Source: an uncultured Nitrospiraceae bacterium (GTDB taxonomy: Bacteria; Nitrospirota; Thermodesulfovibrionia; Thermodesulfovibrionales; UBA6898). Taken from it: a DNA stretch of 64,000 nucleotides. How positions within the stretch are numbered: the first letter of the stretch is position 1; every line of letters starts with the position of its first letter. A program made the position numbers and the translations under genes. The stretch is from NCBI GenBank assembly GCA_963811165.1, contig CAWEQH010000004.1:544001-608000 (forward strand), given 5' to 3'. This document shows, piece after piece, positions 1 to 57,904 of this stretch. The notes under the pieces were generated by a model that worked only from the letters and a program-made list of their open reading frames with translations, did no database searches and was not told the DNA's origin.

Positions 1-222
1 CACGATTCGGTCGGGAGCTTTTTTCGATATATCGCCGCCCTTGTAAACGATGCTGCCCCCCTCAGGCCTTATGAGCCCGGAGATAGTGGACAGGAGAGTG
101 GTTTTGCCCGCCCCGTTTGCTCCTATAAGGGCTACGATCTCGCCCTGCTTTATATGGAGAGAGACCCTTTTTACCGCGTGTATCTTGCCGTAATAGACAT
201 CGACGTTTTTAAGGATGAGCAT
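1..222 (-). CDS. livF: Branched-chain amino acid ABC transporter ATP-binding protein LivF-like (5' part only, runs off the window)
   Basis: Manual translation MLILKNVDVYYGKIHAVKRVSLHIKQGEIVALIGANGAGKTTLL contains Walker A; overlaps livG stop. Confidence 0.9.
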   Translation of the reverse strand, partial: MLILKNVDVYYGKIHAVKRVSLHIKQGEIVALIGANGAGKTTLLSTISGLIRPEGGSIVYKGGDISKKAPDRIV

Positions 223-988
223 CCGTCACCTCTTCCTCAACGCCGAGATATGCGGCTACGACTTCCGGGTTTTTCTGGATCTCAAGGGGCGTCCCTTCAG
301 CGATCACTTCTCCGAAATTAATGACTGTAATCCTGTCGCTTATCCCCATGATCAGGTCCATATCGTGCTCGACGAGCACAATGGTTATTCCTCGTCCGTC
401 ACGTATCCTCCTTATCAGACCGCCGAGGTTACGGGTCTCTTTGATGTTGAGCCCTGCGGCAGGCTCGTCGAGGAGCAGGAGCTTCGGCTCTGTGGCAAGG
501 GCCCTTCCGATCTCCAGTATCCGCTGCTCTCCTATGGGCAGGTTCGCTGCCTGCTCATTCATCCTCGCACTGAGACCGACATACTCAAGTATTTCCCCGC
601 TCAGTTTTCGCGTCTCCTTTTCTTCCCTGATACCGCCGGGGAATCTCAGGCCGGAGGAAAAAAACCCGGAACTTGTTTTTGAGTATCTTCCCACCATAAC
701 GTTTTCAAGTACGGTCATGCCGCTGAAGAGCTCCACATGCTGAAAGGTCCTCGAGATGCCTTTCCTGGCGATCCTGTCGGGGGAAAGGCAGCTGACCACC
801 CCGCCGGAGAAACGGACTTCACCCCTGTCGGGGACATGGATGCCGCTGATGACATTGAGAAGCGTCGTCTTCCCTGCGCCATTAGGACCTATGAGGGCGC
901 ATATCTGCCCCTCTGCCGCGTTGAAAGAGACGTCCTTGAGGGCGGTGAGTCCGCCGAAGCTTTTTCCTATGCCGCTAACTTCCAACAC
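209..988 (-). CDS. livG: Branched-chain amino acid ABC transporter ATP-binding protein LivG-like
   Basis: GPNGAGKTT Walker A, LLLLDEPAAGL Walker B, C-terminal VVAAYLG. Confidence 0.93.
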   Translation of the reverse strand: MLEVSGIGKSFGGLTALKDVSFNAAEGQICALIGPNGAGKTTLLNVISGIHVPDRGEVRFSGGVVSCLSPDRIARKGISRTFQHVELFSGMTVLENVMVGRYSKTSSGFFSSGLRFPGGIREEKETRKLSGEILEYVGLSARMNEQAANLPIGEQRILEIGRALATEPKLLLLDEPAAGLNIKETRNLGGLIRRIRDGRGITIVLVEHDMDLIMGISDRITVINFGEVIAEGTPLEIQKNPEVVAAYLGVEEEVTDAHP

Positions 989-54446: not shown

Positions 54447-55037
54447 ATGCCTTACGCAGCTAAAGATTACGGTAAATTAATCGGGATGAGCGGGTTTAGT
54501 GAAACACTCCTGAAGAACCATTTTACCTTGTACCAGGGGTATGTGACGAATACAAACAAGGTGCTCGATGTCCTTGGCCAGATGCTCAAAGACGCAAAGA
54601 CGGGGACCCCGGAGTATGCCGAACTCAAGAGGAGATGTGGCTGGGAATTCAACGGAATGAGGCTCCATGAGTACTACTTCGAAAACCTCGGCGGAAAGAC
54701 CCCCCTCGACAAGTACGGCGCCCTGGGCAAGCAGATGCAGTGCGACTTCGGCAGTGTTGAGGAATGGGAGAAGGACTTTAGGGCCACGGGGGCGATGAGG
54801 GGCATCGGTTGGGCGGTGCTGTATCAGGACAACCTAAGCCAAAGGCTTTTCAACTTCTGGATAAACGAGCATGATGCCGGACATCCGGCCGGGTGCGTGC
54901 CGGTACTGATTATGGATGTGTTCGAGCATGCATTCATGATCGATTACGGACTAAAGAGGGCCGATTATATCGAGTCCTTTTTCAAAAATATCGATTGGAA
55001 GGCCGCCGAATCAAGGATGCTCAATAAGGTGGGTTGA
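54447..55037 (+). CDS. Fe/Mn superoxide dismutase family protein
   Basis: NHFTLYQGYV, LHEYYF, GIGWA, MDVFEHAF; AGGAGG RBS; TTGACA at 54369. Confidence 0.9.
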   Translation: MPYAAKDYGKLIGMSGFSETLLKNHFTLYQGYVTNTNKVLDVLGQMLKDAKTGTPEYAELKRRCGWEFNGMRLHEYYFENLGGKTPLDKYGALGKQMQCDFGSVEEWEKDFRATGAMRGIGWAVLYQDNLSQRLFNFWINEHDAGHPAGCVPVLIMDVFEHAFMIDYGLKRADYIESFFKNIDWKAAESRMLNKVG

Positions 55038-55049
55038 TGCCGACCTGAC

Positions 55050-55083
55050 AAAAAAACCCTGATCCCTTCGAAAAGGGATCAGG
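55050..55083 (-). terminator. Rho-independent terminator of the rSAM-peptide transcript (likely also stops the convergent SOD transcript)
   Basis: ccctgatccctt-cgaa-aagggatcaggg stem with A-run on plus, i.e. U-tract on minus. Confidence 0.85.
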
Positions 55084-55108
55084 GGCATTATCGCGGGGTC
55101 TTACTCTT

Positions 55109-55171
55109 CTAGCAGGAACTTTTGCACTTACAGGTGAGAGCGGACTTTTTCTGGACCTTCCTGATCGTCAT
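55109..55171 (-). CDS. Putative RiPP precursor peptide MTIRKVQKKSALTCKCKSSC (20 aa, not in ORF track)
   Basis: GAAAGGTGGTG RBS 5 nt before ATG; C-terminal CxCxxxC; 33 nt downstream of the rSAM stop. Confidence 0.75.
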   Translation of the reverse strand: MTIRKVQKKSALTCKCKSSC

Positions 55172-55204
55172 ACATACACCACCTTTCATACAGGAATCCC
55201 GGCC

Positions 55205-56356
55205 TCATGCAGGACCGTCATACTGATCCATTATATCATACATGGCGCATCTGTAAAGGTCCCTTCCGAGCGGACCTTCAAGGGCCTCGGCCCTGTATCT
55301 GCATCCGCCCCGGCAGTGCTCAAGATGCGTGCAGTCGCATCTGAGGGCGGCGAGCCTGACGGGCGCTATCCTTTGCCAGCACGCTGCGAGTCCGTCGGCG
55401 ACGCTGCCGGCAGGGCTATCGGAATAGAAGGTGCATTTTGAAGCCGCCCCTTTTGCGGATACGGACATTAAGTGCAGACCGCATGCAAAACCGGGTTCTC
55501 CTGCATGGATCCCGCTGCCGTACCCATAAGCGAGGTACCTCCCGCCCTCCCGGGGGCTTACCATGAGCTCCCTATTGCGTTTCATTCTCCCTTCCGCGCA
55601 CGGCACGTCGACGGTCCAGTCCTTGACCCCCATTTCTCTGAAGAGTTTTTCCATGGCATCGAAATCATTCAGATTTGCGCAGTGGACCATAGTGGAGACT
55701 GAGACAGCGAATCCTTTCGCGAGGCAGTTTCTCGCCGCGTCGAGGGAGGCATGAAAGGTCCCTTTCCCACGCAACAGGTCGTGTGGGCCTTCAAGACCGT
55801 CTATGCTTATCTGTATTTCATTGACATTGAGTCCTTCGATGATCTCCCCTTTCAGCAAGGTGCCGTTTGTAAACAGGACCTTTCTGAATGAAAATGCCGG
55901 GAGCATCTCGTTGATCTCGGCAAAGCGGCTGTGCAAAAGCGGTTCTCCTCCGGTAATAAGCAGTCTCAGACCCTGCATTTCCTCAAACTCTTGCAGGACC
56001 TTTTTTATCTCATGCACGGAGAGTTCAGCCTTCCCGTTTTCTTCGATATAGCAATGTCTGCATCTCAAATTGCACCTTCCCGTGATCTGCAGTTCCAGAT
56101 ACCGAAGTGATGGGCGGGGGGACTTCATAAGGGGAGGTCTCATGAGCGGCATTCTTTCGGTCAATAAAATGCCTTCCCCGAGGCAGTAGTCTGTAAAATC
56201 CCGGCTATCGGAACATCCGCCGTGTTCGGAAGAACATCCTTTAAGGAATTCAAAGGATTCTTCGTCCAGATCATAAAGCTCGTCTGTCCCGATATGATAA
56301 ACCGAAGGCGTTTCGAGCCATTTGAGCGCGCATGCATTCGATAAGAAAAAACGCAT
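55205..56356 (-). CDS. Radical SAM/SPASM-domain protein with an N-terminal extension (putative peptide maturase)
   Basis: CNLRCRHC, ITGGEP, FTNG, ISIDG; C-terminal C..C..CDCTHLEHCRGGC..C auxiliary cluster ligands; ~80-aa N-terminal domain. Confidence 0.9.
   Translation of the reverse strand: MRFFLSNACALKWLETPSVYHIGTDELYDLDEESFEFLKGCSSEHGGCSDSRDFTDYCLGEGILLTERMPLMRPPLMKSPRPSLRYLELQITGRCNLRCRHCYIEENGKAELSVHEIKKVLQEFEEMQGLRLLITGGEPLLHSRFAEINEMLPAFSFRKVLFTNGTLLKGEIIEGLNVNEIQISIDGLEGPHDLLRGKGTFHASLDAARNCLAKGFAVSVSTMVHCANLNDFDAMEKLFREMGVKDWTVDVPCAEGRMKRNRELMVSPREGGRYLAYGYGSGIHAGEPGFACGLHLMSVSAKGAASKCTFYSDSPAGSVADGLAACWQRIAPVRLAALRCDCTHLEHCRGGCRYRAEALEGPLGRDLYRCAMYDIMDQYDGPA
55230..55238 (-). promoter_or_regulatory. 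Putative internal extended -10 promoter for the peptide gene
   Basis: TGATATAAT on minus strand within the last codons of the rSAM gene. Confidence 0.55.
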
Positions 56357-56640
56357 TTCTTATTTTACTGCGGATCGGTATCTAAAGCCAACAGCCGATA
56401 GAACTGTGGGCAGATGATAATTAAGCGGGCAGGCCTTTGGGGATCGGGGATAGGCCTGCCCTTTGGGGATCGAAGGTAAGTTTTCAAAATGGGGATCATT
56501 TGGAGGGTACTTACCTTCATAAATATCATACCACGACTAGCCGGCTGTCCGCCAGTGGAATGTGCATGTCCGATAAAATATCCAGGATAACGGCGTCGAA
56601 TAATTTTGCCCTGGAGTGGTTATTGGAGATAATATAAACA

Positions 56641-56970
56641 ATGACGCTTATACGACAACTTTGCCTTCAATTCTGTCCCTACTACAAATCCTCAAAAAAT
56701 GAGGAGCTTGCCTGTGGCGGGTTTGTTGAGGTGCAGTCGCTATTAGAGAAGGGCAGGCGGATCTCATTTGATATGCGTGGCAGGGCGGTCGGACCGGAGA
56801 CTGTCAGGGCGCTTATGCGGAAAGTGTGCACGGCCTGCCCGTTTTACGGGGAGGATTGCGACTTTATCCTGAAGGGTGGAGCGGCCTCGCCGTGCGGCGG
56901 CTTTTTGTTGCTGGGACAGCTTGTGGATGAAGGGACAATATCTGTTGACGACGTAGGGGAGATGGACTAA
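56641..56970 (+). CDS. Cys-rich hypothetical protein (putative metal/Fe-S binding)
   Basis: CLQFCPYYK, LACGG, CTACPF..DCDF, SPCGG; 7 Cys. Confidence 0.7.
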   Translation: MTLIRQLCLQFCPYYKSSKNEELACGGFVEVQSLLEKGRRISFDMRGRAVGPETVRALMRKVCTACPFYGEDCDFILKGGAASPCGGFLLLGQLVDEGTISVDDVGEMD

Positions 56971-57011: not shown

Positions 57012-57482
57012 ATGGAAAAATTTTCACTTCGCGAGGCGATCGAACAGGCGGTACAGACGGAAAGATTGGGGTTTGAGTTTTACCGTGAGATGGCGAAACG
57101 GTTTAGTGATAAGCAGCAGATGAGGGATTTGTGCGAGACGCTTGCGCGGAAAGAGCTCGATCATGAGAAAAGGTTTTCGCAACTCATGGGGGCGGTGAAG
57201 GATGGAGGGGAAGAGGATTGGGATGAGGTCTCGAAATATTTGAGGGCGATCGTGGAGTCCGAGTTTTTCCTGGGCAAGGGGAAATCACTGCCTTCACTCG
57301 ACAAAGTAAAGACGGTTGCCGATGCGGTCAGGTTTGCGATCGGTTTTGAGAAGGAGACGCTGCTTTATTTCTATGGGATAAGGGATGTGCTCAAGGAAAA
57401 AGACGTTGTCTCTGAGATCATCGCCGAAGAAAAGAGCCACATACTTTGGCTTAGCGGATTCGCCCCCGGCACGAAACAATAG
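57012..57482 (+). CDS. Ferritin-like (rubrerythrin-domain) protein
   Basis: E..G.EFY, ELDH, EKETLLYF, EEKSH diiron ligands. Confidence 0.88.
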   Translation: MEKFSLREAIEQAVQTERLGFEFYREMAKRFSDKQQMRDLCETLARKELDHEKRFSQLMGAVKDGGEEDWDEVSKYLRAIVESEFFLGKGKSLPSLDKVKTVADAVRFAIGFEKETLLYFYGIRDVLKEKDVVSEIIAEEKSHILWLSGFAPGTKQ

Positions 57483-57904
57483 TGCGGCAGTTGATAGGGT
57501 ATTTGAGGCTCTTACATGGTGCTTTCAATCTCTTTGTCATGATGTTTTTTATCTACCAGGGACGCGCGGGGCTGAGGATAAGAAAGGAAAGGGACAAAGG
57601 CATCGTTACGCCTTCTCTTATTAAAAAGCACCGAACGACCGGTCCTGTTCTGGCGGTATTGGGGCTTTTAGGGTTCATTTCGGGGATCGTAATAGTCTTG
57701 TTCCATTTCGCCACCGTGGTGAAGTATCCCCTCCACCTTGCGGTTGGATCGGCGTTGGCACTTTGTATTGCCGCAACTTACCGGATATCCAGGGGAATAA
57801 AGGTCCACGAGCCTCAGTGGAGGACATTGCATTTTGCTTTTGGCCTGGGTGTCTTGAACCTGTACGCTGCTCAGGTCTTTCTTGGATTTGGGATCCTTTT
57901 TTGA
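57482..57904 (+). CDS. Four-TM His-containing membrane protein (DUF4079 / cytochrome b561-like)
   Basis: Four TM helices with His (LHG, KHR, LHL, LHF); start overlaps the upstream stop. Confidence 0.65.
   Translation: MRQLIGYLRLLHGAFNLFVMMFFIYQGRAGLRIRKERDKGIVTPSLIKKHRTTGPVLAVLGLLGFISGIVIVLFHFATVVKYPLHLAVGSALALCIAATYRISRGIKVHEPQWRTLHFAFGLGVLNLYAAQVFLGFGILF

Follow-up and report, generated by a model that had tools for sequence, protein, structure and literature searches.

A radical S-adenosylmethionine (SAM)/SPASM enzyme followed by a gene of only 20 codons is encoded in the 64,000-nucleotide stretch analysed here (the window; positions 544,001 to 608,000 of contig CAWEQH010000004.1, from an uncultured Nitrospiraceae bacterium), and comparison across genomes indicates that the peptide, the enzyme and a seven-cysteine partner protein are inherited together. 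The 20-aa peptide is very probably the substrate of the enzyme, and we favour, with more modest confidence, the reading that the enzyme makes cysteine thioether rings on it to give a product with an intracellular role. As far as searched, this is an undescribed radical SAM peptide system of the RiPP class (peptides made by the ribosome and modified after translation), with extra parts. The original prediction, made from the letters of the window, proposed a system of enzyme plus precursor; both genes were confirmed, but the pair was incomplete, as a third conserved part lies at 56641-56970 and an optional cupin can join it.

The peptide gene (55109..55171, minus strand) starts 33 nt past the stop of the enzyme gene on the same strand and encodes MTIRKVQKKSALTCKCKSSC followed directly by a stop codon. 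It consists of a basic leader, M-x-I-K/R-K-V/I-x-K/R, and a core, C14-K15-C16-x-x-S19-C20-stop. The good ribosome-binding site that had been predicted for this open reading frame (ORF) was confirmed as the Shine-Dalgarno (SD)-like word AAGGTGGTG at 55185-55177 (55177..55185, minus), and an SD-like word (loose pattern) was present in 143 of 143 copies. These 143 gene copies (116 distinct peptides) were collected with a pattern that fixes I3, position 5, C14, K15, C16, S/T19 and C20; in looser searches with K15 free, every basic 20-mer still had CKC. The predicted layout of a basic leader half and a C-terminal CxCxxxC holds, and the invariant core, C-K-C-x-x-S-C, is narrower than that motif. The peptides are 19-21 aa long with three Cys, and the net charge of all 116 distinct peptides is +4 to +10. 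Position 17 is K in 129 of the 143 copies and otherwise A, R, H, G or S. Two peptide genes per genome were observed in G463 (C80:20620-20842), G078, G087, G305, G363, G366 and G452, and the tandem copies of G463 differ solely at position 17 (K or H).

As expected from the original prediction, a CxCx1-4C ORF was found within 400 nt downstream in 29 of the 31 enzyme loci examined; one of the other two loci reaches a contig end, and the other belongs to a genome with an unlinked copy elsewhere. The last Cys stood directly before the stop in all 29 ORFs, a position that the search pattern left free. Nucleotide differences among 140 distinct gene copies numbered 48,849, 52,657 and 108,750 at codon positions 1, 2 and 3, respectively, and this third-position bias, together with the fixed reading frame, indicates that the ORF is protein-coding. 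The 20-codon ORF is therefore a real gene, with a promoter-like site, a ribosome-binding site and a terminator. An alternative in-frame ATG at 55189, which would give 26 aa, is present in the window but not conserved: any in-frame ATG within 30 nt upstream occurs in 18 of 143 copies, and one at -18 in nine. That start was dropped; the ATG in question forms a hairpin loop within the leader. Selenocysteine read-through of the peptide stop was also rejected, the stops being TAA in 78 copies, TAG in 35 and TGA in 29. No match to the peptide was obtained in NCBIfam at E values up to 10 or in Pfam, and none of eight peptide sequences looked up in a 15-billion-protein collection was present, an absence that may reflect the length limits of gene callers.

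The genome survey, in which the reversed peptide pattern served as a control, showed that the two genes occur together. Among 201 Nitrospirota genomes, the enzyme was found in 85 (E 1e-35 or better), the peptide in 81 and both in 80; among 301 genomes of a second phylum (that of G241, the genome holding locus L002), the numbers were 34, 33 and 33, and the control gave 0 in each set. The peptide was present in 1 of 116 enzyme-negative Nitrospirota genomes and in 0 of 267 in the second phylum, where the enzyme of the enzyme-only genome sits at a contig start. The partner was found in 80 of the 201 Nitrospirota genomes, 77 of them enzyme-positive; 77 of the 85 enzyme genomes thus carry it, or 80 when half-size forms are counted, as three of the eight enzyme genomes without the full partner hold a half-size version adjoining the enzyme. 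In genus g25 the three genes lie apart from one another, and yet all 10 genomes have retained them. Of 80 metagenome loci, many of them short or cut, 64 hold an in-family enzyme, and 43 of these have the peptide beside it; the other 16 hold off-family radical SAM genes, none of which adjoins the peptide. A 44th in-family locus with the peptide, L145, has one extra Thr after the last Cys; the genes for peptide, half-size partner and enzyme follow one another there, and the enzyme groups with an Archaeoglobi-named cluster in a midpoint-rooted FastTree tree. Overall, the system is retained in part of the second phylum and, within several anaerobic Nitrospirota families, by the majority of the members sampled.

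Several observations weigh against a strict pairing. Five Nitrospirota genomes have the enzyme only; in three of them it lies at a contig end, and the remaining two, G240 (100% complete) and G232 (98%), look like real exceptions. Conversely, G058 (99% complete) holds peptide and partner without the enzyme, and L153, L203 and L217, which group with or resemble archaeal enzymes, show the partner and no peptide within the locus. The genomes are also kin, so the co-occurrence counts are non-independent and no p-value is offered for them. Separately, the enzyme at L197:3944-5151 is split over two frames, by a frameshift or an assembly error, with an intact peptide gene after it.

The enzyme (55205..56356, minus) is 383 aa long and belongs to the radical SAM superfamily, scoring 70.4 bits with PF04055 against a cut-off of 29.5. 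The predicted CxxxCxxC motif and SPASM-like auxiliary Cys were both confirmed: C95, C99 and C102 are invariant across 100 sequences, and of the seven SPASM cysteines (C292, C308, C340, C342, C348, C352 and C370) six are invariant and the seventh is kept in at least 90%. Their arrangement corresponds to the seven-Cys motif CX9-15GX4C-gap-CX2CX5CX3C-gap-C (PMC6231123; this and the other papers are cited from excerpts), with a CxC spacing here and CxxC in remote members. Among family models, TIGR04085 gave 25.1 bits, below its cut-off of 27, on the C-terminal 103 aa, and Pfam SPASM matched 12 of the 100 members at E values up to 0.05. The window genome holds a single close copy of the enzyme, a single-protein search of genome contigs gave only two loci, one of them off-family, and no match at 1e-40 was found in the plasmids searched. 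Homologs bear the names Thermodesulfovibrionales or Nitrospirota, and the remote enzymes form a discrete family of 90 representatives at E 1e-30 or better, with Aenigmarchaeota, Promethearchaeota and Archaeoglobi among the names of cluster members.

An NCBIfam scan placed the enzyme in no named family, none of the best 25 of 73 families being near its own cut-off; TIGR04463 (CrpC) was not among these 25. The best E values came from NirJ-type models, which would suit a small-molecule radical SAM enzyme of the NirJ/AhbC/AhbD kind; the ORF would then be an unrelated small gene, or would merely accompany a repeat or a conserved RNA element. The leader of the peptide gene does contain a conserved RNA motif. 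However, the scores with the NirJ, AhbC and AhbD equivalog models were 96.7 of 515.45, 81 of 650 and 79.7 of 500 bits, at most a fifth of the cut-offs, an outcome in favour of the original prediction. The coding signature of the ORF, its near-absence from enzyme-negative genomes and the survival of the enzyme-peptide pair after separation also speak against that account, which we regard as largely refuted and very improbable. The models for MftC (TIGR03962, 71 of 265 bits), PqqE (TIGR02109, 52.8 of 381.35) and AlbA (53 of 850) also stayed far below their cut-offs, and the peptide lacks the six Cys in about 45 residues that define SCIFF; the original prediction had likewise not recognised the precursor as SCIFF, PqqA, MftA or another named one.

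The solved structures closest to the enzyme model are peptide maturases (SuiB, SkfB and CteB), consistent with a peptide substrate. A profile search placed SkfB first (E 3.6e-29) and PqqE second, and Foldseek with the AlphaFold2 model (pLDDT 94.5) returned SkfB as the top solved structure. Whole-chain comparison with VIA gave a tie: SuiB reached Z 26.5 (rmsd 4.1) with 355 residues aligned over model 2..375, and SkfB reached Z 26.1 (rmsd 5.2) with 329 over model 7..363. Both alignments cover the N-terminal regions, whereas CteB (Z 23.3, rmsd 3.0, 277 residues) and anSME, which ranked after SuiB and SkfB (Z about 23), aligned from residue 82. The model superposes on SPASM enzymes up to residue 375.

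The N-terminal extension (residues 1-85; 56102..56356, minus), proposed earlier to be a RiPP recognition element (RRE), is likely a leader-binding, RRE-like domain, judging from its model. Strands are predicted at 9-13, 17-21 and 26-29 and helices at 32-41 and 52-60, and these strands and two helices precede the barrel and superpose on the N-terminal regions of SuiB and SkfB, which favours the original proposal. Two results count against the assignment: Pfam PqqD matched 0 of 100 enzyme members, and the model has two helices where the canonical RRE has three strands plus three. The Atlas lead for an RRE is also weak (0.90, with PqqD on 11% of members). The third strand, D25-E-L-Y-D/E-L-D31, is conservedly acidic (among 100 sequences, D25 in 97, E/D26 in 95, E29 in 80 and D31 in 82) and every peptide is basic, suggesting that the leader would complement the RRE-like strand. 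A leader bound to an RRE is described as an extension of its sheet, added at strand 3 (PMC6231123).

From these features, we propose that the basic leader would dock on the N-terminal domain by pairing with the acidic third strand, and that the core would enter the barrel, where the 5'-deoxyadenosyl radical could take a hydrogen from Lys15 or Ser19, the invariant non-Cys residues. A Cys thiolate held at auxiliary cluster I would then close a thioether ring, with one or two core Cys joined in this way to Lys15 and/or Ser19, and a leftover Cys may bind metal. By the ligand assignment given for CrpC (PMC13692751), cluster I would comprise C292, C308 and C352, and cluster II the other four cysteines. 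Cluster I is therefore predicted to be a three-cysteine, open cluster, the state reported for the thioether enzymes CteB and SkfB, whereas anSME, SuiB and PqqE are fully ligated (PMC6231123). The only candidate for an eighth SPASM cysteine is C253, which is Cys in 68 of 100 sequences. The possible ring spacings, three for C16-S19 and five for C20-K15, resemble those of known rings by analogy, a spacing of three being described in NxxcA (PMC8326336). The absence of any aromatic residue at positions 12-20 in all 116 peptides argues against aromatic C-C cross-links. Two points run counter to thioether formation. H284 (in 91 of 100 sequences) or H295 (in 94) could fill the open site of cluster I, and D, E or N occur at positions 12-20 in only 7 of 116 peptides, the known non-alpha thioether acceptors being Asp, Asn, Thr and Glu (PMC8326336).

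If the peptide is the substrate but no thioether is made, the enzyme could decarboxylate or rearrange the C-terminal Cys in the manner of MftC, or epimerise or oxidise a core residue, as a start towards a peptide-derived cofactor. The tyrosine decarboxylated by MftC is the C-terminal residue of its precursor. The stop directly after Cys20 in all 29 copies would fit such chemistry, as would the second place of PqqE by profile, the metal-type cupin that joins in 40 of 85 enzyme genomes, and the character of the gene itself: like those of cofactor precursors, it is tiny, near-invariant, present as a single copy and retained even without linkage. MftC is described as decarboxylating a tyrosine of its precursor (PMC8326336). 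However, the basal locus L145 has a Thr beyond the last Cys, no peptidase was recognised among the common neighbours, the MftC and PqqE scores lie far below their cut-offs, and three invariant Cys are more easily explained by thioethers or metal binding. We consider this outcome rather unlikely and retain the thioether reading.

The third conserved part is a 109-aa partner protein (56641..56970, plus strand), encoded divergently from the enzyme. Its seven cysteines (C8, C12, C25, C63, C66, C73 and C85) are invariant across 35 sequences, as is C73-D74, and E21 beside a Cys is near-invariant. In deep-branching members the protein is just one unit of 55-60 aa containing three Cys; the longer, 109-aa form may therefore have arisen by tandem duplication of a three-Cys unit that would dimerise. 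Of 144 non-redundant full-length enzyme loci, 52 have the partner upstream in divergent orientation and 39 have it upstream in the same orientation; it is fused to the enzyme in 7, lies downstream in 2 and was unseen in 44, the fusion in some relatives being to the N-terminus of the enzyme. It also matches the N-terminal 120 aa of homologs of about 500 aa (E 2e-9 and 9e-15). The partner model is a compact helical domain (pLDDT 86), for which no match in the PDB was found by profile, by Foldseek (0 at E 0.001 or better) or in a wide VIA search (best Z 3.9), a lack of structural match that does not prove a new fold. Pfam and NCBIfam gave no match to the partner, and the Atlas gave unnamed clusters only. 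In our model, the partner would act as a metal- or Fe-S-binding accessory domain.

The partner could instead be the substrate itself, or another protein could be, through cross-linking like that of QhpD or CrpC, in which case the peptide would stay unmodified as a metal- or cluster-binding ligand or a regulator docking on the enzyme. C73-D74 and E21 resemble the residues described as cross-linked in QhpC and CrpA (PMC13692751), the partner co-occurs with the enzyme in most enzyme genomes, and CxCxxxC could chelate metal unmodified. However, the partner occurs in fusions, with the enzyme (7 of 144 loci) and elsewhere with the cupin, as is usual for accessory domains, its confidently predicted fold has no leader-like segment, and the leader/core layout of the peptide matches the acidic strand of the RRE-like domain. 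This makes the partner an improbable substrate, and we continue to assign that part to the peptide.

Two genomes, G227 (100% complete) and G214 (86%), carry the partner gene without enzyme or peptide, either as a relic or for independent use. In 20 loci the partner gene stands apart from the enzyme, and in 9 of them (L225-L229, L231, L233, L238 and L244) it overlaps the end of a cutA-like gene of 104 aa; this overlap probably reflects shared ancestry and possibly a metal link. The cupin-like protein is 110-115 aa long, scores below the cut-off of Cupin_2 and has invariant H29, C31, H53, E54 and H107 and a His-rich tail. In the second phylum its gene is part of the operon, and some Nitrospirota have it as a fusion with the partner. 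Of 201 Nitrospirota genomes, 41 carry it, and 40 of these also have the enzyme; no copy was found in the genome of the window.

The system follows the logic of SCIFF/CteB or SkfB yet fails the membership tests of SCIFF, MftC, PqqE and NirJ/Ahb. Like the clostridial SCIFF systems (CteA/CteB and Tte1186a/Tte1186), it combines an RRE-like domain, a radical SAM domain, a seven-Cys SPASM domain and a short Cys-rich precursor, and is widely spread in an anaerobic lineage, a spread that for SCIFF was taken to argue against an antimicrobial role (PMC8326336). Unlike SCIFF, whose precursor has about 45 aa and six Cys, the peptide here has 20 aa and three Cys, ending in C-K-C-x-x-S-C; a seven-Cys partner and an optional cupin are added, and the system occurs in Nitrospirota and a second phylum, with the enzyme also in archaea. 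SkfB, whose alignment takes in the N-terminal domain, has a twitch domain in place of the full SPASM domain, and relative to SkfB and AlbA the precursor is far shorter and an exporter or protease is unrecognised among the common neighbours. SuiB, the streptide enzyme, has the highest VIA Z and the same domain layout. SuiB cross-links Lys to Trp, whereas the core here has no aromatic residue. The auxiliary clusters of SuiB are also described as fully ligated (PMC6231123).

The mycofactocin (MftA/MftC) and PQQ (PqqA/PqqE) systems likewise have a conserved precursor that is small and ends in a fixed way at its C-terminus, a housekeeping-like spread and a SPASM enzyme, but here the model cut-offs are far off, the RRE-like domain is fused and not stand-alone, the peptide has no Tyr and no peptidase was recognised. 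Radical SAM and SPASM domains with three plus four auxiliary Cys, and an RRE comparable to the RRE-like domain here, are also present in the CrpC/CrpA (TIGR04463; Methanococcus voltae) and QhpD/QhpC systems, for which ranthionine linkages are described on substrates rich in Cys in anaerobes (PMC13692751). CrpA, however, is large with a 17-residue repeat, whereas the likely substrate here has 20 aa and the Cys-rich partner is compact and non-repetitive. SycC is described as a SPASM enzyme that acts on the decarboxylated C-terminal Cys of a 22-aa precursor and needs a LanD-like partner (PMC10989515); such a partner was not recognised here. No description of the system was found in the full-text literature, with subscription papers and supplements outside this scope, and radical SAM RiPP atlases could list the enzyme cluster.

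Most likely the system has a housekeeping-like role (handling of metal, sulfur or redox, or SCIFF-like signalling) and does not serve as an antibiotic. Inspection by eye of representatives of the 32 commonest neighbour clusters, some of which were also scanned, revealed no recognisable protease or exporter, in keeping with the original observation for the window; this absence, together with the single copy, the gene's own probable promoter and its retention after scattering, suggests a housekeeping-like role inside the cell. Metal handling may be hinted at by the three-Cys units of the partner and by the cupin with its His-rich tail. Lineage-kept radical SAM peptide systems such as SCIFF, mycofactocin and PQQ proved to be signals or cofactors, not antibiotics, and the system described here adds a small Cys domain without structural match and a system-specific RNA leader motif. 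In its fullest form, the proposal would be an ancient, lineage-wide pathway of anaerobic bacteria and archaea in which a 20-residue peptide becomes a new metal-binding peptide cofactor by means of the radical SAM enzyme, a new-fold three-Cys accessory domain, an optional metal cupin and an RNA hairpin operator over the ribosome-binding site; as a whole, we hold this to be unlikely. The chemistry lends itself to direct testing, since a peptide of 20 residues is accessible by synthesis and the enzyme by expression.

Beyond the original prediction, signals for expression of the peptide gene were identified in the window: a promoter-like site (55257-55230), leader hairpins and a terminator (55084-55057). 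The sigma-70-type promoter-like site (55230..55257, minus; 11/12, with a TG extended -10) lies within the last codons of the enzyme and is likely the peptide gene's own promoter. TGnTAYAMT was found upstream of the peptide start in 61 of 143 copies, in 42 of these at 61-80 nt upstream, and a -10-like word stood ahead of 65 of 142 copies, compared with 14.8 in mononucleotide shuffles. At 55205-55240 (minus), the enzyme's conserved final Y-D/G-I-I/M overlaps the extended -10 box, so the DNA signal may be the reason why this protein motif is conserved. The intrinsic terminator-like hairpin (55057..55084, minus; 12 pairs plus a U-run) lies between the peptide gene and a convergent superoxide dismutase (SOD)-like gene, and a stem of at least eight pairs occurred downstream of 95 of 140 peptide copies, compared with 16.3 in mononucleotide shuffles. 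An attenuator or leader-peptide role for a downstream gene was rejected because this terminator follows the peptide gene and the downstream genes vary.

The 5' leader (55172..55225, minus) contains two hairpins with AUGAA/AUGAG loops at about 55208-55204 and 55189-55185, both degenerate in the window copy and uncalled at a threshold of at least three pairs. In relatives, the leader carries between one and three well-formed hairpins at a spacing of about 20 nt, whose N-Y/A-GAA loops are mostly AUGAA; such hairpins were found in 67 of 141 leaders, compared with 14.4 in dinucleotide shuffles. For the distal hairpin, 46 distinct rows picked by loop and position only were paired at stem positions 2-6 in 41, 36, 36, 31 and 27 rows, compared with 23.0, 24.3, 21.4, 19.4 and 15.9 in a column shuffle that ignores kinship, and each stem position showed five or six pair types. 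The proximal hairpin had no covariation in excess of composition; it overlaps the SD word and would cover it in relatives. These hairpins could serve as a translational operator for a system-specific RNA-binding protein. An Rfam search of five loci returned only a tRNA, with no family matching the leader hairpin. A genome-wide regulon of AUGAA hairpins was rejected for this genome, in which ATGAA ranks 341 of 768 pentaloops (three of the five loops scanned).

The genes around the system include the Fe/Mn SOD-like gene (54447-55037, plus), convergent with the peptide gene, and rubrerythrin-like and DUF4079 genes (57012-57482 and 57482-57904, both plus), which come after the partner. Across 124 loci (window duplicates included), SOD-like neighbours were found 23 times and rubrerythrin-like neighbours 34 times, mostly in close kin, giving a weak hint of redox or metal stress. 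No repetitive Cys-rich protein was seen among the common neighbours. An ATP-grasp protein lies downstream of the peptide gene in one second-phylum clade (L096, L098, L099 and L101), and a second radical SAM gene follows the enzyme in L110 and L122; both are possible clade-specific tailoring enzymes. In one clade, a Cu/Zn efflux transporter of the SO_0444 family (over the cut-off) lies near the operon (L133:2096-3289 and related, five loci, some of them duplicates). The enzyme-partner spacer measures 285 nt in the window, compared with 35-50 nt in most relatives, and within this divergent promoter region, at 56432-56477, a short direct repeat contains CCTTTGGGGATCG twice.

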